Part shown: positions 9,801 to 56,561 of the stretch, piece by piece
Numbering within the stretch: position 1 is the first letter of the stretch
How the letters are laid out: every line of letters starts with the position of its first letter
Assembly: GCA_049999805.1 (NCBI GenBank)
Contig: JBNGIO010006035.1
Span: 67,587-131,468 of the forward strand
Direction of reading: 5' to 3'
Length of the DNA: 63,882 nt
DNA from: Folioceros fuciformis
Lineage: Eukaryota
The notes under the pieces: generated by a model
What the model was told of the DNA's origin: nothing
Seen by the model: the letters and a program-made list of their open reading frames with translations, nothing else
The model's database searches: none
Made by a program: the position numbers and the translations under genes

Positions 9801-10084
9801 CAACGTCCTCGTCCCATCTCAACTACCAGGCAGTGCACCGGTCTTCAAGCTCTGCGGGTCCAGCACGTATCGGGTTGGAATGACGGAGAAGGAATGGATT
9901 TTGGAATGCCAAATTCTTGTCTTACAGAATCCGTCTGGTTCGTTCGTAGGGTTAGTCGGTTGTCACGGCAGAGACTCGAGGGGGGAATCCGTACTCTGGT
10001 TCCTCATGCTTCCCCGACCTTCGAGCTGGATTTCAAGTCTTCAAGCTTTACATTGTCACGCTGCAGACTGCAGGCAGTTCAGGC

Positions 10085-12914: not shown

Positions 12915-13236
12915 TCTCAGCCAGAAGCTGATTGCGGCGTGTAACAGCGATCCAGGGGCCAGACTCCTGGTTTCCCAGTGGTATGTCACACTGCATAGTC
13001 TTGCATATAGGAGCTGCGCGAGCGAGTGGACACGGATCTTTGCGATCTCTTCCCTGGTGCAGGTTCGGCATGTGCTCTTGCGATGGCTCTCCGGCGGTTA
13101 AGTGGTATTGCCGGAGGAAGTGCTGTTCATCTGACGTTCTCCACGAACGACGTCGCGAGGTGCAGCACTTGCGAGTGTCTTCCTCTGATGCTTTTGCTGG
13201 TGCGATTCTGTGGGGACCCAACAAATCATAATTGGA

Positions 13237-16185
13237 ATGAAAGTGAGGTCGGGAAGACGAACAGGTAGCCTGAAATCCTGCAAATGGTTCCTCAAGAGGT
13301 CCTTTCGCCAACTACGGGATGATCCTGGCCCTCCCAGGCCTGGAGGATGCGGAAGGACCGTCACAACTGAAACCGTTAGCAAGTTGTGCGATCGAGGTCT
13401 TGTCCCTGAGGCCGTTGAGGGTTTGGGAGTCCTAGTACAGTTGGGTTGTTGTATTTCCAAATATCTGTTCTACCATATTTTGAAGAGCTGTATGGTCAGG
13501 AAGGATCTTGTGCTGGGTCGCAGAGTCCATGCTTTCACTGTGAAACAGGGGCACGTTTCGGACACCTTTCTCTGCAACCACTTTCTCCGAATGTATGCTG
13601 CCCATGGCAGATTGCAGGACGCGATGGATGTGTTCGGAGGGGTTGCCATGCCAGATGCTTTCATGTGGTCTTCCTTCATTTCTGCGCATGTCAAACAAGG
13701 TCAGGACAGGCAGGCGATAGACCTGTATCATCGAATGCGAGGGACCAGTGTGAAGGCGGATGGGCATGTGTTTGTAGCAGCCCTTCAGGCTTGTGCGAGG
13801 GGATCAGACCTGAAAACTGGGCAGCAGGTGCATGCTGATGTTTTGGCCAGTGGAGTTGAGCCTGATTTGTTCGTTTGTAGTGGCTTGGTGGACATGTATG
13901 CAAAGTGCGGCAACTTAGAGAATGCGCAGGGTGTGTTTGATGGTCTTGTGGAGAAAAATGTGGTGACATGGAATGCCATGATAACAGGATACTATCAGCA
14001 GGGCTTGGGCCAGAAAGCCCTTCATCTTTACAGTGCAATGGAAGACGAAGATGTAGTTGCACCGGATTCTGTGACATTTGTGTGCCTCCTACAGGCATGT
14101 GCAAGTATAGGTGCCCCAGCTTTGGAGAAGGGAAGGCAGCTGCATGCGCAGTTAAGAGAACGAGGACATGAAGGTGATGTGGTTGTAGGCAACAGTTTGG
14201 TGAACATGTACGCTAAGTGTGGCAGCCTAGAAGAGGCGCAAAGAGTGTTTGACGGACTTGTTCAGAAAGATGTGGTCTCATGGACTACGCTCATTGCCGG
14301 ATATTCCCAGCAGGGCATAGGCCAGGAGGCCCTTCATCTCTACAGTGGCATGCAAGAAGAGGGCATCGCTGTACCCAATTCGGTTACATTTGTTTGCCTT
14401 CTCCAGGCATGTGCAAGCCTTGGGACCTCGGCGTTGATGAATGGAAAGCAGCTTTCTGCACAATTAAGAGAACAGGGATACCAAGCTGATGTGTTTGTAG
14501 CCAACAGTTTGGTTAACATGTATGCAAAGTGCGGCAGCTTGGAAGACGCTGAACTAGAGTTTGAAGGACTCGGTCAGAAAGATGTGGTGAGTTGGAATGC
14601 TATGATAGCAGGGTATTCCCAGCAGGGTATGGGCCAGGAAGCCCTTCATCTCTATAATGCTATGAAAGAAGAAGGGAGGGCTTTACCCAATTCTGCGACA
14701 TTTGTGAGCGTGCTGCAGGCGTGCGCAAGTGTGGGTGCCTCTGCGTTGGTGACGGGGAAACAGGTCCATTTGCAAATCCGAGAACAAGGGCACCTGGTTG
14801 ACGTGCTCGTAGCCAACAGTTTGGTAAACATGTACTCAAGGTGTGGAAGCCTAGAGGATGCTCAGAGAGTGTTCGACGAACTCTCTGAAAAAGATGTTGT
14901 GACGTGGAATGTCCTGATAGCAGGGTATGTCCAGCAGGGCTTGGCCCTGGAAGCCCTTTGTCTCTACAGTGCTATGCAAGACGAGCCCGTCAATGTACCT
15001 GACTCTGTCACTTTCGTTTGCCTCCTGCAGGCATGTGCGAGTCTAGGCAGTGCTGCTTTAGAGAGGGGTAAGCTCCTCCATGCACAAATTATAGATAAAG
15101 GAAGACGAGCCGACGGGTTTGTTGCCAACAGTTTGGTGAACATGTATGCAAAATGTGGCAGCCTGGAGGATGCTCAAAACGTGTTTGACGAACTTGATGA
15201 AAAAGATGTGGTGTTGTGGAATGCGATGATAGCAGGCTATTCCCAGCAGGGCATGGGCCAGAAAGCCCTTCTTCTCTACAGGGCGATGGAGCAAGAAAGC
15301 ATCGTTGCACCTGATTCTGTAACATTTGTGTGTCTCCTGCAGGCATGTGCCGATGTGGCCGCTTTGCATCTGGGAAGGCAGCTACATGCACAAGTTGAAG
15401 AACAAGGGCTTCAAGCTGACCTGTTTGTAGCCGGCAGTCTGATAAACATGTACGGAAAATCTGGTAGCATGGTTGATGCACAGCAGGTATTCGATGCACT
15501 ACCCGAAAGAGATGTCGTCGCGTGGAGTGCCCTGATTGCAGGCTACTCCTGCCAAGGAGATAGTGAACTGGTTTTTGAGCTGTTCCAGAGAATGAGAGAA
15601 GAAGGCATACAGCCAGTGGGCGTCACGTGCCTCAGCGTATTAACAGTATGCAGTCATGCGGGTTTGGTGGACAAAGGGAGAGAGTACTTTGAGGCGATGA
15701 GCACACGCTACGGCATCACTCCCACTGTGGAGCACTACACAGGCATGGTAGATCTCCTGGGCAGAGCAGGCGAACTGGATGAGGCACTAGCGCTGGTAAA
15801 AGCGATGCACATCCCGCCCACTTCTGCAGTATGGCACACTCTGTTGGGCGCCTGTCGAAAGTGGAGCAACGTGGAGGTGGGTCTCCATGCTTTCAATGAA
15901 GCAGTGAAGCTAGACGAGCAAGACGCTGCTGCATATGTGTTGATGTCCAACACCTACACAGGTGCCCATATGTGGGAGCAGGCACAGCAGATCCAGGCGA
16001 GGAGACGAAGCATTTGGGCATGGAAGCAACCAGGTCAGAGCTGGTGGACAGACATGAACGGCCTAGTGCATAGTTTCGTGGTAGGGGATAAGCACCGTCC
16101 CAAGAGTGAGGACAAACTCCGGCTTCCAGGGGACAAAAGAGACCCTGTAGAACATTTCCAGGTTGTGCAGTCATTGGCAAGATGA
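13237..16185 (+). CDS. PLS-class PPR protein, E-type with WW-type PG-box; tandem paralog of 10085..12904
   Basis: Long P-L-S array ending WKQPGQSWWTDMNGLVHSFVVGDK, with no HxE/CxxC. First in-frame ATG is at ~13237; the true start is uncertain. Confidence 0.92.
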   Translation: MKVRSGRRTGSLKSCKWFLKRSFRQLRDDPGPPRPGGCGRTVTTETVSKLCDRGLVPEAVEGLGVLVQLGCCISKYLFYHILKSCMVRKDLVLGRRVHAFTVKQGHVSDTFLCNHFLRMYAAHGRLQDAMDVFGGVAMPDAFMWSSFISAHVKQGQDRQAIDLYHRMRGTSVKADGHVFVAALQACARGSDLKTGQQVHADVLASGVEPDLFVCSGLVDMYAKCGNLENAQGVFDGLVEKNVVTWNAMITGYYQQGLGQKALHLYSAMEDEDVVAPDSVTFVCLLQACASIGAPALEKGRQLHAQLRERGHEGDVVVGNSLVNMYAKCGSLEEAQRVFDGLVQKDVVSWTTLIAGYSQQGIGQEALHLYSGMQEEGIAVPNSVTFVCLLQACASLGTSALMNGKQLSAQLREQGYQADVFVANSLVNMYAKCGSLEDAELEFEGLGQKDVVSWNAMIAGYSQQGMGQEALHLYNAMKEEGRALPNSATFVSVLQACASVGASALVTGKQVHLQIREQGHLVDVLVANSLVNMYSRCGSLEDAQRVFDELSEKDVVTWNVLIAGYVQQGLALEALCLYSAMQDEPVNVPDSVTFVCLLQACASLGSAALERGKLLHAQIIDKGRRADGFVANSLVNMYAKCGSLEDAQNVFDELDEKDVVLWNAMIAGYSQQGMGQKALLLYRAMEQESIVAPDSVTFVCLLQACADVAALHLGRQLHAQVEEQGLQADLFVAGSLINMYGKSGSMVDAQQVFDALPERDVVAWSALIAGYSCQGDSELVFELFQRMREEGIQPVGVTCLSVLTVCSHAGLVDKGREYFEAMSTRYGITPTVEHYTGMVDLLGRAGELDEALALVKAMHIPPTSAVWHTLLGACRKWSNVEVGLHAFNEAVKLDEQDAAAYVLMSNTYTGAHMWEQAQQIQARRRSIWAWKQPGQSWWTDMNGLVHSFVVGDKHRPKSEDKLRLPGDKRDPVEHFQVVQSLAR

Positions 16186-17098
16186 TCCGGCACACAACCG
16201 ACGGTAGAGAACGAGACAATAAATAGGCAACCACTCCTGGTAGTAGTTCAACTGTCGTGTGTGGGAAGGTATTCTCCGATCCAATCCATGAGGCGGACAA
16301 GCTCCCGCAATCCGCCATCAAGATCTGGATTTCAGCAGGACCAGCGACTTCCATATCTTGGTACATGTGGTAGGCGTCCTCATTATGCACAGATCTGTCT
16401 CCCTTGGATCCCTAGCATGTCACTTATTTTCTCACAAAAACATGCTCTTCATTTTCGTTTTCTTGCGCGTCGCGTAATGTGGGCCACTCTTGGGTTTAGA
16501 AAACGTTGGGCGACTCTTTCGTTTGTGTAAGACAAATATTTGGGCTGTAGACAAAGAAAACATTGTTACATGGGGGAGGCTGACTCTACGTCTACTCCCC
16601 CCAGCCGAGTGACTGCTGACGTTCGGTGATTCTCTTTACATGCGTGGATTTGATTTTTATCAAGCTTTTATTATATTTTTTTAAAACAGCCTCTTGTTAT
16701 TTCATCACTCCTTAATTTTTGTTTATCGTTTCATTCAGTAAGATATGGACACTAATACTTCTTAGAACCTTGATTGTTTTTCCTCATCCACCATCGTTTC
16801 TTGGATGGGCTTCTTTTTTTCTCCTCAATGAAACTTTACTCAAAGTGGAGTCACAAAGAAAGATGGATACATTGTCTCACGATGCAAGAAATGAGAGTAG
16901 AATTGTAAGGAAACTTCAAGGATGGGATAGAATATTTCACAAGAGACCATAAGCACGGAGTAATGGGAAATCTTTAGGATAGATGGTATAACTCAAGTTT
17001 TAAGAGTGGCTTTTATTTATTTTAGAAAATGGGAAACTCATGTACCCCTAAAAGATAAACATGGTTGGGACACTGTGGGCTAACCTTGAAGTTTAATG

Positions 17099-17440
17099 AT
17101 TACCAATAGCAACTTAAGATATCATGGTCTAGAAAGAGAAAGAAATTACCAATAGCAAAAAATTACCAATAGCACCTAAAATATCATGGTCCTGAAAGAG
17201 AAAGGGTTTTGGAATTGTTCACTAAAATCTAATGATTACCAATAGCACCTAAGATATCATGGTATAGAAAGAGAAAGAAATTACCAATAGTACCTAAGAT
17301 ATCATGGTCTAAAAAGAGAAAGAAATTACCAATAGCACCTAAGATATCATGGTTTAGAAAGAGAAAGAAATTACCAATAGCACCTAAAATACCATGGTCC
17401 TAAACAAGAAAGGGTCTAGATGTTGGAATTGTTCACACTT
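17099..17440. repeat. 45-bp AT-rich minisatellite (~6 copies in two blocks)
   Basis: Unit is attaccaatagcacctaagatatcatggtNtagaaagagaaagaa; both blocks end in ...ttggaattgttcac. A (TA)n tract follows at ~17450-17470. Confidence 0.9.
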
Positions 17441-18349
17441 CATTGTCTTTTATATATATATATATATATAGTATTAGCTACATCTACACTCTACAATCAT
17501 CACAAAGTTGAAAATGAGATGCTATGGAAAATATATTTTTCTGTTTTTTAACTATTTAAATATATTTTCTTTGTTGACACTACCTCTCCTATCAATATCG
17601 TCGTCCTATAGATACAGTATTAGCTACGTTTCCCACTCTACAATTGTCACAAAGTTAATAACGGGATACTATGGAAAAATTATTTTCATATTTTTCACTA
17701 TTTAAATAAAATTTAAGTACCAAGCTACTTAGCTAACCCTAAGAATTAACATTGCAAGCCTAAATCTAAAGTAGAGCAGTTTGTAAAAACCTACTACTAC
17801 TATAAGGTGTGAGGTGGTTCAAAGATACAAGCCAACTTTTTGTGAATATTTTTTCCTCTCCTAAGGTAGATGTATGTTTCCATCTTGTTTTCTGAATAAG
17901 TTCTCCATGTTTCTCTTAATCTATTTGTTAAGGATGCATGTCCTATTTTGCTCCTTATTATGTTGAATTATATATTTATATGCGTAGGTTAGATGTCCGA
18001 GTTCGCTTACCGTAATCAAAGGCTATATATGTGCGTATCCGGTCCCAAGATCTTTAAAGCATCACACCAGAAGTACTTTGAGAAACTTTTTGTAGGACGA
18101 AAGTATCCTCTCAAAGAAGCATGAGCACCAAAAACCCTGGCCCAGAGTACTAAGTAGAAAGAGACCAAGGATAGTGACTGAGCGAAGGAAATCTTCTTCG
18201 GAAGGTACGAAGGCTCTTTCATTTCCTTTGCTGTGGCATCTTTTGTCCCTTCTAGTGACCATAGGAGATGAGGTATTGCTATCACTTCATTTCTAGAACG
18301 TACCCACTCCACTTTGCCCTCATATGCCATTCTGTGCGGCTTATGTTTG

Positions 18350-23725: not shown

Positions 23726-26505
23726 TTAGGCAGGTGTAGATGAGGTGGCCGCGAAGTTCATGCATATTGGAGGATTGACCTTAACCAGAGCAAGAATGGC
23801 GGAAGGTACAGTCCAAATTCCATCTCCGCAGATGAGGCCTGACGCAACGGCGGGGGCATACGCTTCTGCTTTCTTACTGTCTCGCCGCTGCCAGATATAA
23901 AGGATGACTGAGCCAATAGCCATATCGATTGCAAAGTAAGCTCCAATGTAGAAAGGGATTGCCATCGCCATTGGAATCGGTATGTATTTGGCGTACCTCT
24001 TAGGGACAACATCCCTGAGAGTGTTGATCCATACTGCCAGGAGAAAGAATCCCAGACACAACTGCAAGCAGTGGCTCGGGAGAGCTGAAAATCCTTCTGT
24101 TCCTATAATAGCCATAGCTCTGAAAATGGTGCCATTTGGTGCCTTGTATTGTCCGTTTTGGTCACCGATGGTGAAAGCGTTCCAATACAACCAAAATGTT
24201 GCTGGCGACACAATGCATCCCATGAGAACGCCAATTATTTGAGCCACAAACATGGATCGAGGTGATGACAAAGTAAGGTAGCCAGTCTTGAAATCCTGCA
24301 TCAAATCTGCTGAAGCCCCAACAATGGTTTGCATCACAGTAGCTGTTACGAGGCCTGCAATGACGCCTCCTCCCGAACTCCCCCCCCAGGTTGCGAATAT
24401 AAATAACCCCAGTTTACCATATGTGGTAATCAGACTCCAGTCTGTTAGGCCCGTCCCGTACGAATTGCAGAATGCTAGCACCGGTGCAAACAAGTAGGCG
24501 ACCAATATGAAGTACCACTTCGCTGGCTTGTATAGTTGGGGTATAGCTGCTGTTGAGATGGCAGCCAGTGTCACATATCCAACCAACGCCAACCAGGGGG
24601 GAATTTGATCCTTATTGAATATCTCATTTCGCTTCTCTTCGTCCAGAGATAAATCCTCAATTTTGGAAGCTATATACGAATGGCAAAGAAATTCGGATTA
24701 GTCAAAACTGATGAAATTGATAATCTCCAAACTAATGAACTCCAGAGTAGGATTTCTACCTTGTGCTCCATCCAGGGGAAGGTCACTTTTTCGCTGCTTA
24801 TAATGCTTGTCAAGGGACGTGATAGTCAGTACTATGATCTTCAAAAAGTTGTAGAGGCCGTCTCCAAGAATAAGAGCAATAGCAAGGAAGATCTAACAGA
24901 CGCGACGGGTCATGAGCTTTTAGTAACTTGTATGGGGCAACGATTCCACACAGCCATATTCGTCCACGCTTACCCTGTAACCAGTGATGCCTTGAAAATC
25001 GTACGATTTAAGGCCCTCTGGATACCACTTCCCAGCCTGGTTGCCAATCAAGGGCCACAATAGGCCCCAAGATATAATAGCTCCCAGAAGCACAGAAAAG
25101 TTCACAATATGGGAACAAATCATGCCAACTCCAATAAATGAGAGGCTGAAATCAAAGTAAAACCTGATTGACAGACCCACACGTCAGAGCAGTTGATGAA
25201 CCAGAGAGTTGGATGGACAAAGATAGTCGACTTATAAGCTGATCTCACACCTGTTTTCAAAGGCCTTCAGACCCAACGAAGGGAAATTGTCAAATCCGCA
25301 GGCGTCTGCTCGACCTGAGAAGAACCACTTGAAGAAACTCCAAAAAAAGCTGATCGTGAAGTACTTCCCCAATATCTTTACTTGCTTCCTGCAGCACCAA
25401 AACGACTCCAGTTAGAATCCAGAGTTGCAGACATGTCCATGTCCTCAGTGCTCTGAATAAATATCTCATCAATACTTGGCTTGGTCGGCTCCCAGCGGAG
25501 TATGAAAGCTGTTAATCAGCACAGCGGTAGCAGTCCCACTTGGATAAGTTAGCTTGTAGTCTAAGATCATAATCTGCAGGATTTTCAACTTCTCTGTCAG
25601 CAGCTCCGCATTTTCCTTCTGTTTTTACCAGGAGCACTCCCTCATGCAACACAATAGGAAGGAGAAAGCAAAGGTTGTAGTACCCTGCGAAGTGGAACGA
25701 TTGAAAAGATACCAATAACACCGATCAGCAACATAAACAAAATAAGACGTCCAAGATGTGGATTTATGATATCTTGTTCAAGGTTTCCCTTCTGTCCAAG
25801 AAGATTTTCGTAACTCTGTCGGTCCATTGCAAGCAGCGAGTTGCTGAATCCACCTGCAGGAACAAATAACACCAACGGTGACATGTGTATGGCCTCAAAC
25901 AACAAAGAAACAATTACCGCTGACTGCACACACTGAGGAGACAATTGTGCAGGCAAAAACAGTTTGAGACGGGCTCACGGAGGGGATCAGTCTTTATTGT
26001 TCAAGTACGTAAGAATCATGGGCACGTTGGCATTGACAGCCAACTTCGTACCTGTAAAAGCCAGTCCGCAACAAGCGATAACAGTCGTTTGAATCACTGT
26101 GTTCTCCTGTCGAGTGAAGGGCCTGGTCTTCAATCCAAAATAGCTCAAGGCGCGATTCCACAAAGAGAGGAGGAAGAAACCCATGAGTCCTGCCGCTATG
26201 TTGAAAGACGGGATGATGCCCACCGTGAAGGCGAGCTTGTGCGTTATAAGAGAAAAGATAACTCCGAGTACTCCCCCCACCGCCAAGGCACGAAATGTAA
26301 TTTGCTCTTTCCATGACGGAACTTCAACACCTTCAAAAAGCTCTTCACCAGCCGGAACATGCTTGTCCCCACGATTTGCGTTGTGTCGCTGCCGAATACC
26401 GTCATGGTCGACTGTAGTGGATAAGTCTCCACCTAATCCATACTCTCTCAACCTGGTGATGCCTTCGTCCAGGCCTGACTCTCGATTCTCCTCGTGCGTT
26501 GCCAT
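23726..26505 (-). CDS. Yellow stripe-like (YSL/OPT family) metal-nicotianamine transporter, multi-exon
   Basis: Motifs [94 protein letters not shown] and PPICM. Confidence 0.95.
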
Positions 26506-28470: not shown

Positions 28471-32247
<3,777 letters not shown>

Positions 32248-38369: not shown

Positions 38370-40655
38370 TTAATGCCGATCCCCACATGAGCATGAGCCA
38401 TCCACAAAACGGTGTACTCGATGGGCATCTCTGACAACAATCTCCCGCTTCTCAAGATGCGACATAATCTTGGTGCTGCTGTGGCAATCATTACACATTC
38501 GAAGGTTCTTTGTAACTATCAAAGTTGTGCCATCTGGGGTGTTCATCAAACCATAGGCCAAGGCCAGCTTTTCCGCATGTCCACACAACGAATCCTCCTT
38601 CTCCTGCTCAGACACTGCCTTCAAAACCAACTGTGTGTGGGGCACATGGCCTCCCTCCTCCTTCAGCCTGGTATTCACACTCTTCAGCTTGCCGTAAATG
38701 TCGGACCTGTCTTCTCCTACCGTGAACTCATGCACCTCATTCTTCACTTCAATGCATGCTTTTGCTGGCTTCTTCATAGCCCCTGCTGACTTTCTCAATT
38801 TTTCTAGTCTGTCTACATCGCCCCACAGCCCCGCGTTCGCATAGATGTTCCCCAAAAGCACGTAAGAGCTTGCACTCTCAGGTTCCAGCTCCACAAGACG
38901 GTCAAAGCACCGTCTGCCACGCTCTAAATCACCATAGTTTTTGCAAGCACTGAGCAAAGCCTTCCAACCAACAGGATTCTTCTCAAATGATGGCGTTCGC
39001 ATCAAGTTTTCGGCCTCATCCAGACAGCCAGATCGTCCAAGAAGATCAACCATGCAGCTGTAGTGATACGCAGTGGGAACAATACCGTACTCGTCAGCCA
39101 TCACTCCGAAATAGCGCTGGCCCTCTTGCACCAGGCCTGCATGACTGCATGCCACAAGCAGAGAAATGAAAGTTGTCTCATCAGGCTGGACACCTTGCCG
39201 AATCATGTCATCAAAACATTGCATGGCCAGGTCGCCATCCCCGTGCTCAGCGTAGCCATTGAGCAAAGCATTCCATGTCACGACGTCTCGTGTGGATAGC
39301 CTCTTCAGAACACTCCGAGCCTCATCCAGGCTTCCACATTTTGCATACATGTCCACGAGAGCGCTCCCGAGGAGAACGTCATCTTCCAACCCCCTTTTCT
39401 CAATCTGCGCATGAAGCTGCTTACCCTGCTGCAGAGCTCCAACCCTGGCACATGCTTGTAAAAGGCACGCCAAGGAAACCTTATCCGCAACAATTATACC
39501 GTCCTCTTGCATTTTGGCAAAGAGAGCCATGGCCTCCCGACCACGCTCTTGCTGCGTGTATCCTGCGATCATGGTAGTCCATGTCACCACATCCCTTGTG
39601 GCCAACCTGTCAAACACCTCCCGAGCTTCGTCCAAGCTGCCACATTTGGCATACATATTCACGAGGCTGGACCCAACAAATATATCCGCCGTCAGGTCAC
39701 TCTTCACAATATCCTGATGCACCTGCCTGCCTGCAGCTAGATCCACTGCAGAGGCACACGCCTTCAAGACTGCCACAAATATGCGGTTATCCGCCTTCAC
39801 ATTGGTGTCCCGCATTTCCTGATACAACTTCACGGCCTCCACCGGCTGTCCATGGTTAACCCGTGCGAAGACCATCGTGGCCCACATATACACATCAGGG
39901 GAGGGCAACTTATGGAACACCTGTGCTGCCTCCTCCAGCTCTCCATGATACGCATACATGCCAATGATGTGATTAGCCACAAAAGGGTGCAAGTCATACC
40001 CACTTCCCACAGCAAGAGCATGAACACGCCTACCGAACAGCAGCCCCTCTTCTGCCATGCACCTCTTCAGAACAGGATAGAAGAGAGACTGACAAATGGG
40101 AAATCCTCTCTGCAACAGCAACTCCAAGGCCCCAACAGCCTCCCCCAAATCTCCCTCCTCACAAGTTCGCCTCAACATTCTAAGCATCGAATCCCCTGAC
40201 CCATCCTCAGTCCCTGCATAATGCCCCTCCAACCCAGCATCCCACCGGGCCAGCTCATCATCCACCCACCCAGGCTTCTTTGGACTGTTCAGCCACAGGG
40301 GCTCCTTGGTGGCTTTGTGCCTGAAGTCAGGATGCCGGGGACTTCTCTTGTCAGGCCGGTTGTCCCACCATTTTGTAGGATCAAGGAAGAAATCTTCCCA
40401 TAAGAGCTCCTGCCGCTCCTCCTTCCTTGAAATTTTTCCACTGCTCCCTGCAGCAGGAGCTTGGGAGAACTGCGCCAGAGCGCCCAGCTTGAAGCCACCA
40501 CACACTCCATAACCACCATCCCCGGATACTAAATGCTGAAGAGGCCACAGCAAACCGTGCGGCAACCCTTGCTGCTTCAGCACCCAAATGCGGACCTCCG
40601 AGAGCCTCGAATTCCGTGGCCGTTGTTGCAATGGCAGCTCCAGCGACATCGCCAT
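38370..40655 (-). CDS. PDF-motif + PLS-PPR + E1/E2 + DYW:KP (KPAxA/DRH) protein; candidate U-to-C editing factor
   Basis: The C-terminus reads KKPAKACIEV...HAEKLALAYGL...KNLRMCNDCH...RDAHRVHRFVDGSCSCGDRH*. The N-terminal region has WEDFFLDPTKWWDNRPDKRSPRHPDFRHKATKEPLWL. The gene is intronless. Confidence 0.93.
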   Translation of the reverse strand: MAMSLELPLQQRPRNSRLSEVRIWVLKQQGLPHGLLWPLQHLVSGDGGYGVCGGFKLGALAQFSQAPAAGSSGKISRKEERQELLWEDFFLDPTKWWDNRPDKRSPRHPDFRHKATKEPLWLNSPKKPGWVDDELARWDAGLEGHYAGTEDGSGDSMLRMLRRTCEEGDLGEAVGALELLLQRGFPICQSLFYPVLKRCMAEEGLLFGRRVHALAVGSGYDLHPFVANHIIGMYAYHGELEEAAQVFHKLPSPDVYMWATMVFARVNHGQPVEAVKLYQEMRDTNVKADNRIFVAVLKACASAVDLAAGRQVHQDIVKSDLTADIFVGSSLVNMYAKCGSLDEAREVFDRLATRDVVTWTTMIAGYTQQERGREAMALFAKMQEDGIIVADKVSLACLLQACARVGALQQGKQLHAQIEKRGLEDDVLLGSALVDMYAKCGSLDEARSVLKRLSTRDVVTWNALLNGYAEHGDGDLAMQCFDDMIRQGVQPDETTFISLLVACSHAGLVQEGQRYFGVMADEYGIVPTAYHYSCMVDLLGRSGCLDEAENLMRTPSFEKNPVGWKALLSACKNYGDLERGRRCFDRLVELEPESASSYVLLGNIYANAGLWGDVDRLEKLRKSAGAMKKPAKACIEVKNEVHEFTVGEDRSDIYGKLKSVNTRLKEEGGHVPHTQLVLKAVSEQEKEDSLCGHAEKLALAYGLMNTPDGTTLIVTKNLRMCNDCHSSTKIMSHLEKREIVVRDAHRVHRFVDGSCSCGDRH

Positions 40656-41395
40656 GGCAATTTCGGAGGCGCACGCACCCAGCTTTGAGTATACTATCAT
40701 CCCCCTTATCTATCATGGTTTTTGTTTTGGTAGGTACTTTCAAATTTGTCCATTTTAATATCTTCAACAAATGCTACAGAGTAATGGTACAAGTAAAATA
40801 AAGTGAAAGTTAAAAGTAAAAAGGTGAAAGCTAAATCTACAGCCTTCTTATGAGAAGCAAATATGCTTCTTGCTGCCTTTGGAAACAAGATGTGTGTTCC
40901 AGGCAAAACCTCTTAAGAAGGATGGAGTTGTAATGACCACTAGTATTCTCAGATGAGTGGTGTGTATCAATCCCAACTTTAGCAGTGGCTTAATTGTGGA
41001 GTATAAATAGGCCAGTGTTAGGTTTTTAAGGATATACTTTGATACTGTGATATACTGATACACAGAGAGACAAAGAGAGAGAGGCAAACAGTGAGAAGTC
41101 TAGCCTTGAGGCATAGCTGTGGAGGGCTTGAAGAGCAAGCTTGTCAGATTGAGTCTAGAGCAGTAGTCAGTGGGGCATAGATTGCCAGACTCTTTTGTAA
41201 GTATCTGGAACAAAGAGCAGCACCTAGAGGAGGTGGTCTGCGAGTCGTCAGTGGACGGCAAGCTACTTGGAGCCTAGTGCTGAGTCGTGAAAGAGGGAGT
41301 GTGTGATTTGTAAGTGGAGCGCAGTGGAGTGAATAGACGAGATTCGAGGCCGTTGCTTCTTTTTACGCTGCGTAAGGAAGGGGGCGTTACCTAGT

Positions 41396-48395: not shown

Positions 48396-50888
48396 ATGCG
48401 AAAACTAGAACAAGGGCCTTGGTATGTGAGGCTGTCGGATGCAGGCATTGGGCTGCTGCAGCAAAAACGGCAGCCGCTCGGTTTTGTCTCGCCAGCTAAA
48501 CATTTACTATCTGGAGGTGGCGGATATGTGGTGTTGGGGAGCTTCACGCTGGGGGCCCTGGGGCAGTGCTCTCCGGCCCCTGCTCCTGCTGCAGGAATTA
48601 GGTGTGGAAGTGTGCGGAGGGAGCGGCATGAGCTCTTGTGGGAAGGTTTCTTTCTTCATCCTGCAAGATTGTGGGACAGGAGGCCCGATAAGAGAAGGCC
48701 CCGGCATCCTGACTTCAGGCACAAGGCCACCAAGGAGCCTCTGTGGCTGAATAGTCCGCAGAAGCCTGGGTGGTTGGATGGAGAGCTGGCCAGGTGGGAT
48801 GCTGCGTTGGAGGGGCATTGTGCAGGGGCAGATGAGGGATCTGGGAGTGCTGCTACGAAGGGTTCTGTGAAATGTGAGGATCTTCCAGATGCAGCGTGTA
48901 GGCCGTCCCGACGCAATATTTTCTCATGGACTGCCACGATATCAGCACACATGAAACGGGGACGGTATCGAGACGCTCTGATAAGCTACAAGGAGATGCG
49001 CGGGGACAGCTTCCAGCCAAGCAAGTATCTTCTGCTGAGTTTGATGAAAGTGTGTGCTAGGCTAGCAGAACTGGAAGAGGGGAAGAGCATCCACGCAGAA
49101 GCTGTCGAGTTTGGCCACGGTTCGGACCTCATTGTGGGCACTACTCTTGTTGACATGTACGCTAAATGCGGGAGTATGATGGATGCTGAGCGTGTGTTTG
49201 ACACGTTGACGGAACGTGACGTGGTGGCCTGGAATGCCATGATCTCTGGGTATTCGCAGCAAGAGCAGGGCAAGAAGGCACTGCAACTCTATTCCCAAAT
49301 GCAGGATGGATCTGTGAGGCCAAATGAGCGCACATTTGTCAGTGCCCTCAAGTCCTGTGGGTGCCTGGCAGCAAGTGAGCAGGAGATGTTTGTCAGTGGA
49401 CAGTATGTCAAAGCAGATAGCCTTGCAAGGGGCCGGGAGATTCATGCTCAAGTTGTGAAACAAGGATGTGAATTGGGGTTGTTTGTTGGCACGACTCTGG
49501 TTGACATGTATGCTAAATGTGGGAGCATGTCAGATGCGCATAATGTGTTTGATAGGTTGCCTCAACGGGATGTGGTATCGTGGAGTGCAATGATTGGAGG
49601 GTATGCTCAGCAAGGACAGGGTGGAAAGGCTCTACTTCTGTACTCTCAAATGCTAGAGGTTGGTATAAAGCCAGATAATTGGACCTTTGTCAGTGTGCTT
49701 AAAGCATGTGCATGCTTGGCAGCGATCGAAGAGGAGACGTTCATGGGGAGGGAATCAGCCAGACTAGACTGCTTGGCAAAGGCTAAACTTGTGCACGCTG
49801 AAGTGGTGAGAAGGGGTTTTGGGAGGGATCTTTTTATTTGTAACAGTCTCATCCACTTGTATGGCAAGTGTGGCAGTATGGTGGATGCAGAGCAAGTTTT
49901 CAATAAAATTCAACATCCAAATGTGGTATCCTGGACAGCCATGATTGAAGGATACGCTGAGCAAAATCAGGTAGATAAGGCAATGGAACTCTATTCCAGA
50001 ATGAAGGGGCAGGGTGTGCAACCAGATCAGGCAGCGTTTCTCAGCATCCTTAAGGTGTGCAGCAACGTTGGAGCTCTTGACACATGCATGCAGATTCATC
50101 AGGACATAATAGACAGCGAAGTTGACTGGAGTGTGAACGCTGCAAGCAACCTTGTACATGCATACAGCAAATGTGGGAGCATAGTGAAGGCTCGTTGTGT
50201 GTTCGACAACCTGCCCAAGCAACACCCAGTCTTGTGGAATTCAATGATTGCAGCATATGCAAGGCATGGCGACTGTGCAAGCAGCTCGCAGTGTTTCTTG
50301 GACATGCAAAAGGCAGGTGTAGATCCTGATGGAATCACATTCATATCCTTGTTGGCTGCGTGCAGTCATGCTGGCCTAGTCGAGGAGGGCCTCGCCTTCT
50401 TCCATTCCATGAGCAATCTCTACAGCATTACGCCGACTGCTCGCCATTATGCGTGCCTTGTGGACCTCCTCAGCCGTGCAGGACTACTTGTGGATGCTGA
50501 GAATGTGCTCTTGACCATGCCCACTGAGCCGGACGTAACCATGTGGTTGTCTTTGTTGGGAGCGTGCCGGACTTACCAAAATGTAGAGCTGGGAAGGCGT
50601 GCCTTTGATGGTGTAGTCAAGTTGGACCCCAAATATGGAGCAGCCTATGTGGTTATGTCAAGCATGTATTCTCTAGCGCAGAGGTGGGAGGATGCTACGA
50701 AGATACAAGAGTTGAGACTAAGTGAACGAGCTTGGAAAACGACTGGTCAGAGCTGGACAGAGCACTTGGGAACTATGCATGTATTTGTGGTGGGAGATAC
50801 CAGACATCCACAGATTGAAGAGATCCATGCCAAAATAAGGCACCTCAATTTGCAAGAAGCATCCCGACATCTGGAATCGGCATTGTAA
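48396..50888 (+). CDS. PDF-motif + PLS-PPR (with elongated L motifs) + E/E+ protein, no catalytic DYW
   Basis: The N-terminal region has WEGFFLHPARLWDRRPDKRRPRHPDFRHKATKEPLWL, followed by a PLS array. The C-terminus is KTTGQSWTEHLGTMHVFVVGDTRHPQIEEI...*. Confidence 0.92.
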   Translation: MRKLEQGPWYVRLSDAGIGLLQQKRQPLGFVSPAKHLLSGGGGYVVLGSFTLGALGQCSPAPAPAAGIRCGSVRRERHELLWEGFFLHPARLWDRRPDKRRPRHPDFRHKATKEPLWLNSPQKPGWLDGELARWDAALEGHCAGADEGSGSAATKGSVKCEDLPDAACRPSRRNIFSWTATISAHMKRGRYRDALISYKEMRGDSFQPSKYLLLSLMKVCARLAELEEGKSIHAEAVEFGHGSDLIVGTTLVDMYAKCGSMMDAERVFDTLTERDVVAWNAMISGYSQQEQGKKALQLYSQMQDGSVRPNERTFVSALKSCGCLAASEQEMFVSGQYVKADSLARGREIHAQVVKQGCELGLFVGTTLVDMYAKCGSMSDAHNVFDRLPQRDVVSWSAMIGGYAQQGQGGKALLLYSQMLEVGIKPDNWTFVSVLKACACLAAIEEETFMGRESARLDCLAKAKLVHAEVVRRGFGRDLFICNSLIHLYGKCGSMVDAEQVFNKIQHPNVVSWTAMIEGYAEQNQVDKAMELYSRMKGQGVQPDQAAFLSILKVCSNVGALDTCMQIHQDIIDSEVDWSVNAASNLVHAYSKCGSIVKARCVFDNLPKQHPVLWNSMIAAYARHGDCASSSQCFLDMQKAGVDPDGITFISLLAACSHAGLVEEGLAFFHSMSNLYSITPTARHYACLVDLLSRAGLLVDAENVLLTMPTEPDVTMWLSLLGACRTYQNVELGRRAFDGVVKLDPKYGAAYVVMSSMYSLAQRWEDATKIQELRLSERAWKTTGQSWTEHLGTMHVFVVGDTRHPQIEEIHAKIRHLNLQEASRHLESAL

Positions 50889-51657: not shown

Positions 51658-53496
51658 TCACCTGCCACGCTCCCGCTCAAAATTGACGCGGGTTCTGCCG
51701 GACCCACCTTCATATGCGTCTCTGGAGCCTCCACCACCACTTGCTCGCATGGTGCCGCCACCACCAATTTTATCCAAACCCTTCTTCCCCTTCTTCACCT
51801 CAGTCAAGAACTGGTCGAGACCGAAAGGATCTGCCTCCTCGGCATCCCGCTCAAACTCAACAGGTCGATCCCTCGGGCCTGGCCTTTCGGAAGCCCCTGC
51901 AAATCCTTTATCTGCTCTGAACCTGTCAGTCTTGAGATGATCATCGTTGGCAGGGGCATCGTTATCAGCATCTTTCCTAGGCCTGTAAAGGCCTCCAAGA
52001 CCTGAGTGAGACGAAAACAGACCCTTATCGTACACATTGTAGGAATCGTCCGCCCCAAAGCCAGACTCCATGCCCTGCTCCTGGTTGAACAAACGCTGAT
52101 CATACATAACCTCATCACCGCCTCCAGCAACGTGTGCCATACCAAGAGCGACCTTTTCACTGACGTCCCTGTCCCTATCTCTGGTGAGCTTGCTCTTTTT
52201 GCTGACAGGGCCATCTTTAGCCTCCAACCTCCGCTCCCTCTCCCTCTCTCTGCGCCTATCTTCCCTGATGGCCTCCCTCCTCTGCCTATCTTCCCGTTCC
52301 TCCTTGGTCTCCCTCACCCGGTCCTCCTTGCCAGGACCTCCCCTTCCACCATCCATCTCACCATGACCTCTCTCTCCTGCTCCTCCACCACCACCACCAC
52401 CTAACCCTCTCTCACCGCCTCCAGCAGAAGCTCCAGCTCTATCCCCACCAGCACTCGAACCACCACCTGCCCTTTCCATGCGAGCCCTCTGGGCCAACAT
52501 ACGCAGCTCCTGCTCCCTCTTCTCCTTCTCCTTCAAAATCAGCTCTCTCTGAATCTTCGACCTCGTCTCCACGGCTTCCCTAGCCTTCTGTTCTGCAACA
52601 TATAGCGCCTCTGAAAATTTGGCAAAGTTGTCATTGATCTGGACTTCTTGCAAACCCCTCCCATCTGCCGCCAAACGCTTGTCAAGCGGAATGGTGTACC
52701 CTTTCGGATTCTTCCAGTTAGAAATACACGGGGGGATCTTCCAATCCTGCTGATCCTTGACAGTCACCGGCCGAGGCGGGGAGTGCATAACCGGCACAGG
52801 AGGAGAGCCAGAAGCTTTAGGCACACGCTTATGCTTAAACTTAGGAGGCTCCAGGGGATCCTTGGGCATCTCCACCATTCGAATCACTCTCTCCTTAGCT
52901 CCAGAATTGAACGCCGCTGACTGCTGCGACGGCGTGTACTTGATGTAAGCCGGCTCCGTAGAATGAGACGGCAAGCTCTTAGGCTGCGCAGCGCTCAACC
53001 TAGCACTCACGATCTTCTCCAACACAGACTTCGTCCTCTCCGTAGTCTCCACCACTTCCTCCTCACCAGGTCTACCCGTGTCCACCTCAGTAGGCAGCTT
53101 CGGCACCAGATCCTGGTGCTGCGTAAACACCGTCTTGGATGCATTCTCCGCCTGTTTCACAACAGCATCGAAGGCGATATTCCCCGCCGCGTCCACACTG
53201 ACCGGAAGAATCTTGCTGTCCGGCCTCTCCTGCTTCCGGCCCATATTGAGCGGGTACTGCGCCACATGCACTTCCGGAAATGCTCCTCCATCTCCAAAAT
53301 CCTCAACCCTGCGCGGCACGAAGCCTGCCCTCTTCCCGTACGGCGGAGGCTCCTTGAACCTGATTGCAGCTGTGCCGGACCCCGGCTTGCCGACCTCAAG
53401 CCGCTCCTTGAACCAGGCATCCGCGGAGACATCGTAAGCCGGAGCCGCCCTGTGCTTCGGCTCCGGCAAATGCCCCAGCAGCTCCACCGCCGACAT
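51658..53496 (-). CDS. SKIP: SNW/SKI-interacting protein (Prp45), intronless
   Basis: FGDGGAFPEVHVAQYP, DPLEPPKFKHKRVP, PPCISNWKNPKGYTIPLDKRLAADGRG and YDQRLFNQ. Confidence 0.95.
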   Translation of the reverse strand: MSAVELLGHLPEPKHRAAPAYDVSADAWFKERLEVGKPGSGTAAIRFKEPPPYGKRAGFVPRRVEDFGDGGAFPEVHVAQYPLNMGRKQERPDSKILPVSVDAAGNIAFDAVVKQAENASKTVFTQHQDLVPKLPTEVDTGRPGEEEVVETTERTKSVLEKIVSARLSAAQPKSLPSHSTEPAYIKYTPSQQSAAFNSGAKERVIRMVEMPKDPLEPPKFKHKRVPKASGSPPVPVMHSPPRPVTVKDQQDWKIPPCISNWKNPKGYTIPLDKRLAADGRGLQEVQINDNFAKFSEALYVAEQKAREAVETRSKIQRELILKEKEKREQELRMLAQRARMERAGGGSSAGGDRAGASAGGGERGLGGGGGGGAGERGHGEMDGGRGGPGKEDRVRETKEEREDRQRREAIREDRRRERERERRLEAKDGPVSKKSKLTRDRDRDVSEKVALGMAHVAGGGDEVMYDQRLFNQEQGMESGFGADDSYNVYDKGLFSSHSGLGGLYRPRKDADNDAPANDDHLKTDRFRADKGFAGASERPGPRDRPVEFERDAEEADPFGLDQFLTEVKKGKKGLDKIGGGGTMRASGGGGSRDAYEGGSGRTRVNFERERGR

Positions 53497-54868
53497 CACA
53501 ACCATCAACGCAACGCTCCCACCAGCTCCAAATGCTTGGCAAGAGCGAACAATCGCAGCACTGACTCGCTGCAAACAACCCTAGGTCACACACCACGGGA
53601 GGTCTCACACCTCCTAATCCCTGCTCCTTAGCGACCACTTCTGCCGTTCAGGGCTCGGGGTGATTTCAGCTACGAAAGATATCCGGTACCTGCATATATA
53701 GCCGCATATATAATCTCGAATATAAAATATATAATCTCGAATGCCTGGTTGAACCCCTACTAACAAAGTGAAGATTAAAAAATAGCTGATTCAGAAAAAC
53801 TGCTTAAGAGATATGTAGTGTGATGTGCAGGAATTCTCATGTTATCAAATGAAGAGGACGCCTCAATATATAGTCTTATTATTTCTTGGTCTTTGAAATA
53901 AATAATTTTATATTTATTCTTGATTTTTGAAATAAAAAAGGGTTTAGGGAAATTATTATATATTTGTTCTTAGGCTTTAATTGGATAAGCTTAACACTTC
54001 TAACTTCAACTTCATTACCTTAAGATTTTTTTTGTCAAATCGACAAGGAGGAAACCAAGGCGTTATTGAAACCCATCTAACCCAATGTAGGGTTAGGTGG
54101 TAGCAACTAACCCTGAAAATACAAAATTAAATATATATTTTTCAAAACAAATGATTATTTGACAATACGCTGTTGCACCCGAGGAGTGTTCCAGCAGAAG
54201 AAACCTGTGACACAAGCAAGCACGCCTGTTGGAGCAGGAACATAAGGTGACTCAAGGATGCCTTGTTGGACGCAGGACTGCGAATGGGTTTCCTCTTGTG
54301 ACACTTGAAGTCCAGCTCTTACAAGGAGCTTTTCTGCTTCTCTATGGAAGAGGTCCTGTTGCTTATGTTTTGTGATGAGAGGAGAAAGGTGGCATGGACA
54401 CAGACTTTTATTAGTCCTCCCTCAGTGTATGGCTGGCCTGGTCTGAGGAACAGTGTCATTCGAATGTTTCTCGAACAAACATTCAAATGTTTTTGCTTCA
54501 TGGGCAGAAGCAAGTGGCAATATACTGGCAGGCAACATGTCACGGGTTAAATCAGACGCAGCCGGCATACATTTCTTTCACCAGGACGTTTCGGGTACGA
54601 CACAGGTTAAAATGGGTACACCGTCTGCCCCAGGGCTAGATCACCACCGGCAAATAGGGTGAGCACACACAAGGTCCTGGTTGAAGCCACCACACTGGAA
54701 TTGAAGTGACTGTAGATTGAAACAACACCTTGCAGGTCGTGAGCTTGGCCACGATGGACTGAGGAGCCCACATGGATAATATACACCGACTCGAGAGGGA
54801 AAGTGAAGCCTTCAAGTTCCAAACACCTGCCTCATCTCTAAACAATCTTTAATACTTTTCTGTACGTG

Positions 54869-56179
54869 TCAAGTGTCATCACCTGGGCTAGCCATAAGCA
54901 GCAACCTTTCTTCTGCCACGTGACTACCTGTCCTGGTTTTCTCCTCCGCCAACAGAGACTGAAGGTCACTACCATTGGCCAGGCTGTTGAACTCCACGGA
55001 CTTAGATGGCATTGACGGATAACGCCTTTGGCATAAGGTCATCAGTCTCTTGATAGACTGCAAATACTTTCTCGTAGTTTCGTCATTCATGATGTGCGCA
55101 ACGCTGTTGGTGTAAATCTTCTCTCGAGCAGAACGCTCGTGAATGCCAACCATAGTGACACCAATTGGCCATGGTGCATTGCCAATAGCAAGTTTGATGT
55201 ATTGGTCCATTGCCGTCAGGTAGTCTCTTTTCATACAGCAATTCACCACAATCATCAGCGCCTGGCGGATGTCATCTGGTAACATCTGCACACAAGCATA
55301 AAAGTGAGAACTCATTCCCGATCGACAAACCAGAACCAAACACAAAATGACCACACGTACCCGCTTCCTGCACATTTTGAAGAGTGGTTTAAGATACCGA
55401 GCACACTGCTTGAAAATAGCCACACTCGACTTGCCCCTGCCCGTTCTCCTCTCATTGTCCGGCCGGTCCTCCAGCTCCTGCTCCCATTCCTGGAGAAGAC
55501 GCTTGAAAAACACCAAAATCTTGTCCTCGTCCCCTAGGTCATCGAAATTACTCTTGAGTCTCTTGATGTCCTTATCTGTGTCAAGCCCCGAGGAGCCACC
55601 TCCACCACCCTCCTTTTCACCGCCATTGTCCGTATCCTCAGCATCCATCGTATCCTTTTCCTTGACATGCTTCCCTTTCTTCCCATGCAGCCGTCCGTGC
55701 TTCTCCCGCTTCTTCAATTCCGCCATGTCTGCTAGAAAGTCGTTCCTCTGCCCCTCCATCAACTCACTGTCGGGATCCAGCACCCCCTGCTTCAGCACTA
55801 ACTTCAACCTTGCCAGCCGCATGTCATCGTCCTCACCAAACAACGTGATCGGGGCCTTGAGAATCCTTAGCTGCCGTATAACCTCGCCGCGTGGTAAGAC
55901 TAAGTCATCGATTTTAGACTCCTCACTTGCCACTTCCTTCCCCTTCGCGGAACCCTTGGCCGAAGAAGGCAGCGATGGGGCATCTGAAGCATGTGCTGCA
56001 GCATCTGCTGCTCCGGCCTGCGCCTTCTTCGCTCGTTCCAAAAGCTCTTTCCGCTCTTCCTCCCTGATCTTCTCCAGCTCCCTTTGCTCGATCTCTCCTC
56101 TCTTCACAAACTTTCGGCCCCCAAAGTCCTGCTCAAACGCCTTCCTCTTCCGCGCCAGTTCCTGCTTCAAGACATCCAT
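54869..56179 (-). CDS. PRP18: Pre-mRNA splicing factor Prp18, one 75-nt intron (55286-55360)
   Basis: PRP4-like APITLFGE motif, plus YIKLAIGNAPWPIGVTMVGIHERSAREKI and AHIMNDETTRKYLQSIKRLMT. Confidence 0.95.
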   Translation of the reverse strand: MDVLKQELARKRKAFEQDFGGRKFVKRGEIEQRELEKIREEERKELLERAKKAQAGAADAAAHASDAPSLPSSAKGSAKGKEVASEESKIDDLVLPRGEVIRQLRILKAPITLFGEDDDMRLARLKLVLKQGVLDPDSELMEGQRNDFLADMAELKKREKHGRLHGKKGKHVKEKDTMDAEDTDNGGEKEGGGGGSSGLDTDKDIKRLKSNFDDLGDEDKILVFFKRLLQEWEQELEDRPDNERRTGRGKSSVAIFKQCARYLKPLFKMCRKRVRVVILCLVLVCRSGMSSHFYACVQMLPDDIRQALMIVVNCCMKRDYLTAMDQYIKLAIGNAPWPIGVTMVGIHERSAREKIYTNSVAHIMNDETTRKYLQSIKRLMTLCQRRYPSMPSKSVEFNSLANGSDLQSLLAEEKTRTGSHVAEERLLLMASPGDDT

Positions 56180-56561
56180 GACCAAAATTTCTCCGACCAC
56201 CACACTTCCAGGTTGGAATATAGAATACGTTACAGTGTAGGTTACACTTATAGATCATCTCATGCGCCTGTGTCTCAATTTCCGATCCAATAAATGCTTC
56301 TCCCGTTTGTAATCCCCCGTGGCATGACGTCCCCATCTTCCGCCATCATCTCTCTTCACCCTGGTGTGGCGTCTCGGCAAAACGTCCACGCCCAGTTTTG
56401 CCGAGACGCACTTATTGGATCGGAGATTGAGACGCAGGCCATACACGCTCGAAACTCGAAGATTTCGAAACCTAGACCAGAAAAACTCCTAAAAAAGTGA
56501 TATTAAATTACGAATGTATGGCAAGAATGAGATAGGTCGTCCCAGACCTGTTCCACCTCTA

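Follow-up and report, generated by a model that had tools for sequence, protein, structure and literature searches.

An OSB-type PDF domain ahead of the PPR array in a KP-type editing factor of Folioceros fuciformis and in other land-plant proteins

Why should a motif known from plant single-stranded DNA (ssDNA)-binding proteins stand in front of the repeats of an RNA-editing factor? The question is raised by a gene on a stretch of 63,882 nucleotides (nt) from Folioceros fuciformis (GenBank assembly GCA_049999805.1, contig JBNGIO010006035.1, positions 67,587 to 131,468 of the forward strand), referred to here as the window, for which an earlier note, made from the letters alone, had claimed an OSB-type PDF motif between a presequence-like N-terminus and the PLS array of a pentatricopeptide repeat (PPR) protein, in one reading frame ending in a full DYW:KP domain. 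We found a single intact ATG-to-stop open reading frame (ORF) of 776 amino acids (aa) at 38370-40700 of the reverse strand, which runs in the order of presequence-like N-terminus, PDF domain, 12 PLS-type PPR motifs, E1/E2 and 133-aa DYW:KP domain, and both this ORF and its AlphaFold2 model bear out the arrangement that the note had described. The 776-aa protein is an ordinary KP-type PLS editing factor apart from its N-terminal PDF domain, and we assign it to a "PDF-PLS" subfamily of bryophytes, lycophytes and ferns that is old and has apparently gone undescribed, with members that end in E motifs only, in DYW:PG or in DYW:KP.

The PDF motif and the protein that carries it

The peptide encoded at 40251-40403 of the reverse strand, that is, the peptide quoted in the earlier note plus DDEL, 51 aa in total, contains the Pro-Asp-Phe signature at P124-D125-F126. 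PDF motifs of about 50 aa, named for these three residues, are described as the chief ssDNA-binding part of OSB proteins (PMC13393729), and that of AtOSB1 is reported to suffice for ssDNA binding (PMC6963530); a preference for ssDNA over double-stranded DNA (dsDNA) or RNA is reported for OSB1 and OSB2 (PMC4166229). Pfam gave no family for aa 1-167, even with the threshold at E<=10. With an 87-aa piece as the query, a word-index search across 5.8 billion proteins gave three matches at E<=0.01 among 87 candidates, two of them PPR proteins of Adiantum capillus-veneris (878 aa, E 3.1e-19, 64% identity; 1002 aa, E 4.7e-15) and the third a Tasmannia protein under the NCBI name "protein OSB2, chloroplastic-like" (E 2.6e-17), both PDF repeats of which align to the window motif (BLASTP E 7e-17 and 7e-15). 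Furthermore, an exhaustive phmmer search of 1.84 billion representatives afforded 700 matches at E<=1e-3, including 226 at E<=1e-10 and 19 at E<=1e-30. A word search with aa 85-165 among proteins of 426-1358 aa returned four OSB-like matches and no PPR protein, for which the limits of the word index are responsible.

From the phmmer matches, 399 motif instances were then used to build a hidden Markov model (HMM) of the PDF motif, and all 1312 six-frame ORFs of at least 30 aa in the window were scanned with it. As a result, the 776-aa ORF was matched at E 9e-32, which is the significant PDF-profile match that the earlier note had proposed as a test; the second match was the PPR ORF at 48396-50888 (E 4.5e-23), and the next best reached only E 0.38. 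Judged by the match to the OSB2-like protein, by the 700 phmmer matches and by the alignment to both repeats, the N-terminal motif and the OSB PDF motif are homologous, as had been claimed. Indeed, 63 PPR-linked and 378 other (OSB-like) motifs have in common the core LW..P..WWD.R..K..P..PDFKHK...E.LW....P.WV.

With OSB proteins the 776-aa protein thus shares the ~50-aa motif, the Pro-Asp-Phe signature and the conserved W, R, K, H and W positions. It differs from them in having no central OB-fold/SSB-like domain, according to Pfam and to the modelled disorder of aa 1-90, and in the position of the motif, which is N-terminal and followed by a PPR array here but C-terminal in OSBs; the PPR-linked motifs also lack the longer insertion that the Tasmannia OSB2-like protein carries between K and PDF. 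Membership of the OSB family, which calls for an OB-fold/SSB-like domain and a C-terminal PDF motif, is ruled out for the 776-aa protein. Among the other proteins collected, one from Kingdonia uniflora (P0004, 1160 aa) has 13 PDF-motif stretches and no PPR, where OSBs are reported with one to five.

The fold of the domain was approached by modelling. In the full-length AlphaFold2 model, calculated from a 39-row alignment with a mean predicted local distance difference test score (pLDDT) of 82.8 and a predicted template modelling score (pTM) of 0.75, aa 1-90 have a pLDDT of 20-34 and aa 91-155 one of 84-92, and uninterrupted helix pairs follow from aa 167. The PDF domain is predicted to be a small alpha/beta unit of ~65 aa (helix 92-106, strands 111-113 and 126-128, helix 145-159), and the helix-strand-strand-helix order was unchanged when the domain was modelled alone (59-row alignment, pLDDT 81.3). 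Four positions (W, D, K, P) are invariant in the 59-row alignment, and aromatic or basic residues predominate among the invariant or near-invariant positions of the domain (W, W, W, R, K, F, H, W, W). The domain gave no match to the PDB by sequence at E<=10 and no usable match in the ESM Atlas, while its model gave none in the PDB by Foldseek at E<=0.001 (best E 2.2) and none among 48,161 chains by VIA-align at Z>=5 (best Z 4.9). These null results for the model allow no known fold to be named for the PDF domain, nor do they prove a new one. A complex prediction of the PDF domain with the PPR-E-DYW part, run without alignments and without controls, scored 0.00.

Behind the PDF domain, Pfam recognised the PPR repeats (2.1e-46), the E motif (aa 589-650, 5e-18) and DYW_deaminase (aa 684-774, 1e-35). 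The helix pairs of the model define PPR motifs of 37-35-31, 35-35-31, 36-35-31 and 35-36-32 aa, and the 12 motifs are thus three P-L-S triplets and one P2-L2-S2 triplet, followed by E1, E2 and DYW. This is the alternation of P, L and S motifs of about 35, 35-36 and 31-32 aa that marks the PLS class, and the HxE...CxxCH pattern expected, together with E1/E2, of a DYW deaminase-like domain is present as HAE and CNDCH.

The marks of the KP subclass are given as Lys-Pro for Pro-Gly at the domain start, Ala or Cys for Ser after the zinc-binding His, a variable C-terminal triplet, a length of 132-133 aa and a conserved Lys88 (PMC11845758). In the window protein, the domain start KKPAKACIEV aligns to KEPGCSWIEV of a PG-type structure, so that Lys-Pro replaces Pro-Gly; HAE at domain positions 65-67 has Ala in place of Ser after the zinc-binding His; the Lys of KNLRMC lies at position 88; the length, counted from the K of KP, is 133 aa; and the C-terminal triplet is DRH, not DYW. 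The nearest solved structures, 9kfx (1.7e-40), 7w86 and 7o4e, are all of PG type. By all sequence criteria of PMC11845758, the domain therefore belongs to the KP subclass, the type linked to U-to-C editing, and the claim of a full DYW:KP domain was correct. The protein has in common with the DYW:KP PLS factors of hornworts, lycophytes and ferns, and with the designer proteins KP2, KP3 and KP6, the P-L-S triplets, E1/E2, the 133-aa domain, K1-P2, HAE, Lys88, CxxCH and a non-DYW end. It is set apart from canonical PLS factors by the PDF domain, predicted to be folded, between the presequence and the repeats, where these have a transit peptide alone (PMC9459714).

At the 5' end of the gene, the frame stays open as far as 40709, and the candidate starts are codons 1, 16 (at 40655) and 18, all three of which retain the PDF motif. 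The end coordinate in the earlier note, 40655, corresponds to codon 16 of the 776-aa ORF, an ATG in the context gccATGgcg; this start context is better than that of codon 1. A further ATG, out of frame and 16 nt ahead of codon 1, lies at 40716 and opens a 111-aa ORF (40381-40716, reverse strand).

Distribution and history of the fusion

The earlier note had treated the fusion as if it were unique and had tied it to the U-to-C type of editing factor, and neither view withstood a wider search. PDF followed by PPR was found in 17 of the 150 best library representatives in addition to the two Adiantum proteins, and Pfam confirmed PPR families in all ten PDF+PPR proteins submitted. The full-length search listed the best 120 of 4280 proteins at E<=1e-30, of which 119 had not already been collected; 35 of these 119 carry an N-terminal PDF, in a list that is biased towards PDF because the query words include the motif. 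The set finally scanned comprised 281 sequences, namely 278 public proteins, the two window translations and one copy of the window paralog (P0160). As a result, 54 of the 278 public proteins proved to combine PDF and PPR, with one to three PDF motifs directly ahead of the array.

The fusion occurs in the ferns Adiantum capillus-veneris, Ceratopteris richardii and Pteridium aquilinum, and four transcriptome ORFs of the last with PDF then PPR provide transcript-level support in a fern. Among the best 120 of 4280, the lycophyte Diphasiastrum complanatum was positive in 23 of 34 proteins and the liverwort Calypogeia fissa in all four, while the motif was found in none of the 32 proteins of the gymnosperms Ginkgo, Cryptomeria and Taxus. 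Two or three PDFs stand in tandem in some PPR proteins of D. complanatum. Mosses with the fusion are Sphagnum species and Ceratodon purpureus. The domain is the mark of an architecture that is widespread among non-seed land plants and has apparently escaped description.

A DYW domain is present in 22 of the public PDF+PPR proteins, in 20 cases of PG type (HSE, ending in DYW or DSW) and in two of KP type, and the remaining public members have E-motif ends or are incomplete. Since PG-type members outnumber KP-type ones by 20 to 2 and others are E-only, the PDF domain has no special tie to U-to-C editing. The two KP-type proteins are Logan records, 54-55% identical to the window protein, with HAE and the ends GRP and DRH. 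Close KP-type Logan relatives mostly begin at or near the first PPR, where domain loss and cut gene calls are indistinguishable. One KP-type Logan protein (P0210, 54% identical) has a degenerate PDF-like N-terminal stretch below the HMM threshold, which may be a decaying copy.

In a FastTree tree of 441 motifs and 66 columns, which is weakly supported, the PPR-linked motifs cluster, with 13 label changes compared with 58-63 in the first five of 100 label shuffles. The best split unites 44 PPR-linked motifs with seven others at a support of 56, and there is no single supported PPR clade; the tree is too weak for counting fusion events, and some of its "non-PPR" rows are fragments of PPR proteins, the cluster of P0130, for example, containing a 763-aa PPR protein.

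The window itself holds a second gene with the fusion, which ends at the E motif (Table 1). The two genes share an N-terminal cassette, which blastn returned as one discrete block of ~440 nt that starts near codon 25 and ends at the PDF/PPR junction; the upstream non-coding DNA of the two paralogs showed no similarity by blastn. At the protein level, the PDF cores are 78% identical with an omega of 0.30, the presequence parts 49% identical with an omega of 0.50, and the PPR-E parts 40% identical with saturated synonymous sites (pS 0.76). Because a discrete block with 76.8% nucleotide identity adjoins PPR arrays that are ~40% identical and saturated at synonymous sites, the comparison suggests that the N-terminal module behaves like a cassette that either is younger than the two paralogs, old in their other parts, or has been homogenised between them, presumably through gene conversion or 5'-end exchange. 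The PDF domain is, in terms of its coding sequence, under purifying selection. Contigs of three related organisms (runs X2, X3 and X7), whose kind is uncertain and which indicate presence only, are ~90-93% identical over the region. Compared with the window, all three show a gap of 3 nt at 40416, which keeps the frame and lies immediately ahead of the PDF motif.

Table 1. Parts of the 776-aa gene, its paralog and the cassette that they share (window coordinates)
Feature	Position	Strand	Remarks
Whole coding sequence	38370..40700	-	776 aa; stop codon at 38370-38372
Presequence-like N-terminus, aa 1-90	40431..40700	-	Predicted disordered (AlphaFold2 pLDDT 20-34); omega 0.50 vs paralog
PDF domain, aa 91-159	40224..40430	-	By homology, HMM and AlphaFold2; core motif 40251-40403
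Linker from PDF domain to first PPR, aa 160-166	40203..40223	-	Short, low confidence; pLDDT <50 over aa 156-167
12 PPR motifs, aa 167-575	38976..40202	-	By Pfam and AlphaFold2 helix pairs
E1 and E2 motifs, aa 576-643	38772..38975	-	Pfam E_motif 5e-18; helix pairs in model
DYW domain, KP type, aa 644-776	38373..38771	-	133 aa; K1-P2, H65-A-E67, Lys88, CxxCH from position 93; ends DRH
Paralogous gene	48396..50888	+	Presequence-like N-terminus, PDF motif ~48612-48827, PLS array, E motif; no DYW domain
Shared N-terminal cassette, ~codons 25-169	40194..40627 vs 48409-48845	- vs +	76.8% nucleotide identity

A literature search combining OSB, PDF and PPR terms, outside which some founding papers and survey supplements lay, brought up no description of a PDF-PPR fusion, in agreement with the earlier note, which knew of none. 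In the literature searched, "PDF motif" is used for OSBs, among others, and never for PPR proteins. The searchable text of a 2026 kingdom-wide survey of editing-factor domain fusions has no occurrence of OSB or PDF (PMC13386178), and that of a 2026 survey of 182 OSB genes none of PPR or pentatricopeptide (PMC13393729). A review of Physcomitrium PPR proteins names RRM, LAGLIDADG, SMR, NYN, CBS and SAP as extra domains, with a transit peptide alone before the repeats, and PDF is missing from this list as it stands in the text consulted (PMC9459714). That the fusion was overlooked is plausibly explained by the missing Pfam model. The PDF-PLS proteins resemble the accessory-domain PPR proteins (RRM-PPR such as PPR4, PPR-SMR, PPR-LAGLIDADG, NYN/PRORP, CBS and SAP) in joining an array to a second nucleic-acid-related module, and RRM-PPR proteins also in having it at the N-terminus (PMC9459714). 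They differ in that the accessory-domain proteins are of the P class with Pfam-defined domains, whereas the PDF-PLS proteins are of the PLS class with a domain that has no Pfam model.

Possible roles of the PDF domain

What, then, may such a domain do in front of a PPR array? PPR arrays bind RNA with their N-terminal repeats towards the 5' end. Since the N-terminal end of the array thus faces the 5' side of the RNA, and throughout the family the PDF domain directly adjoins the first repeat, we tentatively favour, at somewhat short of an even chance, a role in which the domain contacts RNA just 5' of the PPR footprint. The end of the core motif precedes the first detected PPR by a median of 31 aa, and by 12-50 aa in 51 of the 54 proteins. 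Placed close before the first repeat, the PDF domain would extend the nucleic-acid-binding platform of the array and would contact the single-stranded RNA beside the footprint without sequence specificity, and this contact would add affinity or hold the editing site unfolded, while the PPR code would set the site and the DYW domain would do the chemistry. The architecture, its placement close before the array, the homology, the conservation, the distribution and the predicted fold are shown by the analysis; organelle import, retention of the domain in the mature protein, single-strand nucleic-acid binding and RNA as the ligand are steps that we infer.

Several points weigh against this preferred role. 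Recombinant OSB1 and OSB2 prefer ssDNA over dsDNA or RNA, according to PMC4166229, which favours ssDNA as the ligand. The one ground for expecting nucleic-acid binding is homology to OSBs, because the predicted fold matches no known nucleic-acid-binding fold. The PPR boundaries behind the spacing count were taken from phmmer and are approximate. Finally, moss PPR56 is reported to edit in Escherichia coli from a construct without its N-terminus (PMC10482289), and such a domain would thus not be needed for editing in general.

The ssDNA preference leads to the main rival reading, which we regard as a serious possibility on the unlikely side, namely that the PDF domain binds organellar ssDNA in transcription bubbles, R-loops or replication/recombination intermediates and would thereby tether the factor to the nucleoid, where it would be concentrated for co-transcriptional editing. 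For PDF motifs, ssDNA binding is all that is known biochemically (PMC4166229, PMC6963530), and it fits a tether better than it fits RNA contact; the core residues are common to PPR-linked and OSB-like motifs, and one to three PDFs stand in tandem in some Diphasiastrum PPR proteins, as in OSBs. However, the tight spacing between PDF and PPR would be unnecessary for tethering to a second molecule, and the PPR-linked motifs lie apart from most OSB motifs in the weakly supported tree, so that the ligand may have diverged.

A role at the protein level, in which the domain would cap or stabilise the N-terminal end of the PPR solenoid, or would serve oligomerisation, partner binding or sub-organellar sorting without any nucleic-acid contact, appears quite unlikely. 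Conservation centres on the aromatic and basic positions that the domain shares with the ssDNA-binding OSB motifs, and the linker is modelled at low confidence, although the model places the C-terminal helix of the PDF domain (aa 145-159) about eight residues ahead of the first PPR helix, and AtOSB2 is reported as a tetramer (PMC6963530), both of which would suit such a role.

It is very unlikely that the motif is a relic, either bypassed by translation from a downstream Met (aa 174 or 177) or cleaved off with the transit peptide. The remnant in the close Logan relative P0210 indicates that decay occurs, but the core is kept across mosses, a liverwort, a lycophyte and ferns, shows an omega of 0.30 between the window paralogs and is part of a confidently folded predicted domain. 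Moreover, ~75-90 aa separate the motif from the start, and the disordered stretch ahead of it is as long as an ordinary presequence; with translation from aa 174, the protein would be left without any presequence. Least credible of all is a role in the editing of ssDNA, in which the PDF domain would pass DNA on to the DYW:KP domain, as the PPR array is a reader of RNA and the PDF domain is found also on 20 ordinary PG-type proteins and on proteins that end in E motifs and have no deaminase. The sole point in its favour is the ssDNA preference of OSB PDF motifs (PMC4166229).

Genomic setting and significance

The window contains four PPR genes in 64 kb. Besides the two with the fusion, adjacent PLS+E PPR ORFs without a PDF motif lie at 9956-12904 and 13189-16185 of the forward strand (982 and 998 aa, stop to stop). 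Other long uninterrupted ORFs are parts of a DEAH helicase (28471-31262), SKIP/SNW (51658-53580, 640 aa) and a Prp18-like protein (54869-56254, 461 aa), all on the reverse strand, and transporter fragments are found at 1301-2365 (POT) and 23726-24697 (OPT). The long ORFs, together with the POT and OPT fragments, point to a compact, intron-poor nuclear region of a plant. The G+C content is 0.373 at 16001-18000, compared with ~0.45-0.55 elsewhere in the window. The 776-aa ORF is read as a nuclear gene for a PLS-class PPR editing factor, presumably targeted to an organelle.

Expression constructs and motif annotation usually leave out the N-termini of PLS factors. A bolder proposal, which we consider speculative and rather unlikely, is that PDF-PLS proteins form a subclass of land-plant editing factors that is ancient and has been overlooked, and in which the PDF domain supplies single-strand capture in cis, at the nucleoid or on nascent RNA, while seed plants obtain such help in trans from helper proteins. 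If this were true, the routine removal of the "signal peptide" region in heterologous assays would delete a functional domain, which could bear on the finding that natural KP-type proteins have shown no activity so far, their activity being stated as unknown in PMC11845758. The fusion raises the questions of whether editing is coupled to the nucleoid or to transcription, how a sequence-independent affinity is added to the PPR code, and whether natural KP enzymes need the module. The known range of the PDF domain, missed because no Pfam model exists for it, is thereby widened beyond the OSB proteins.

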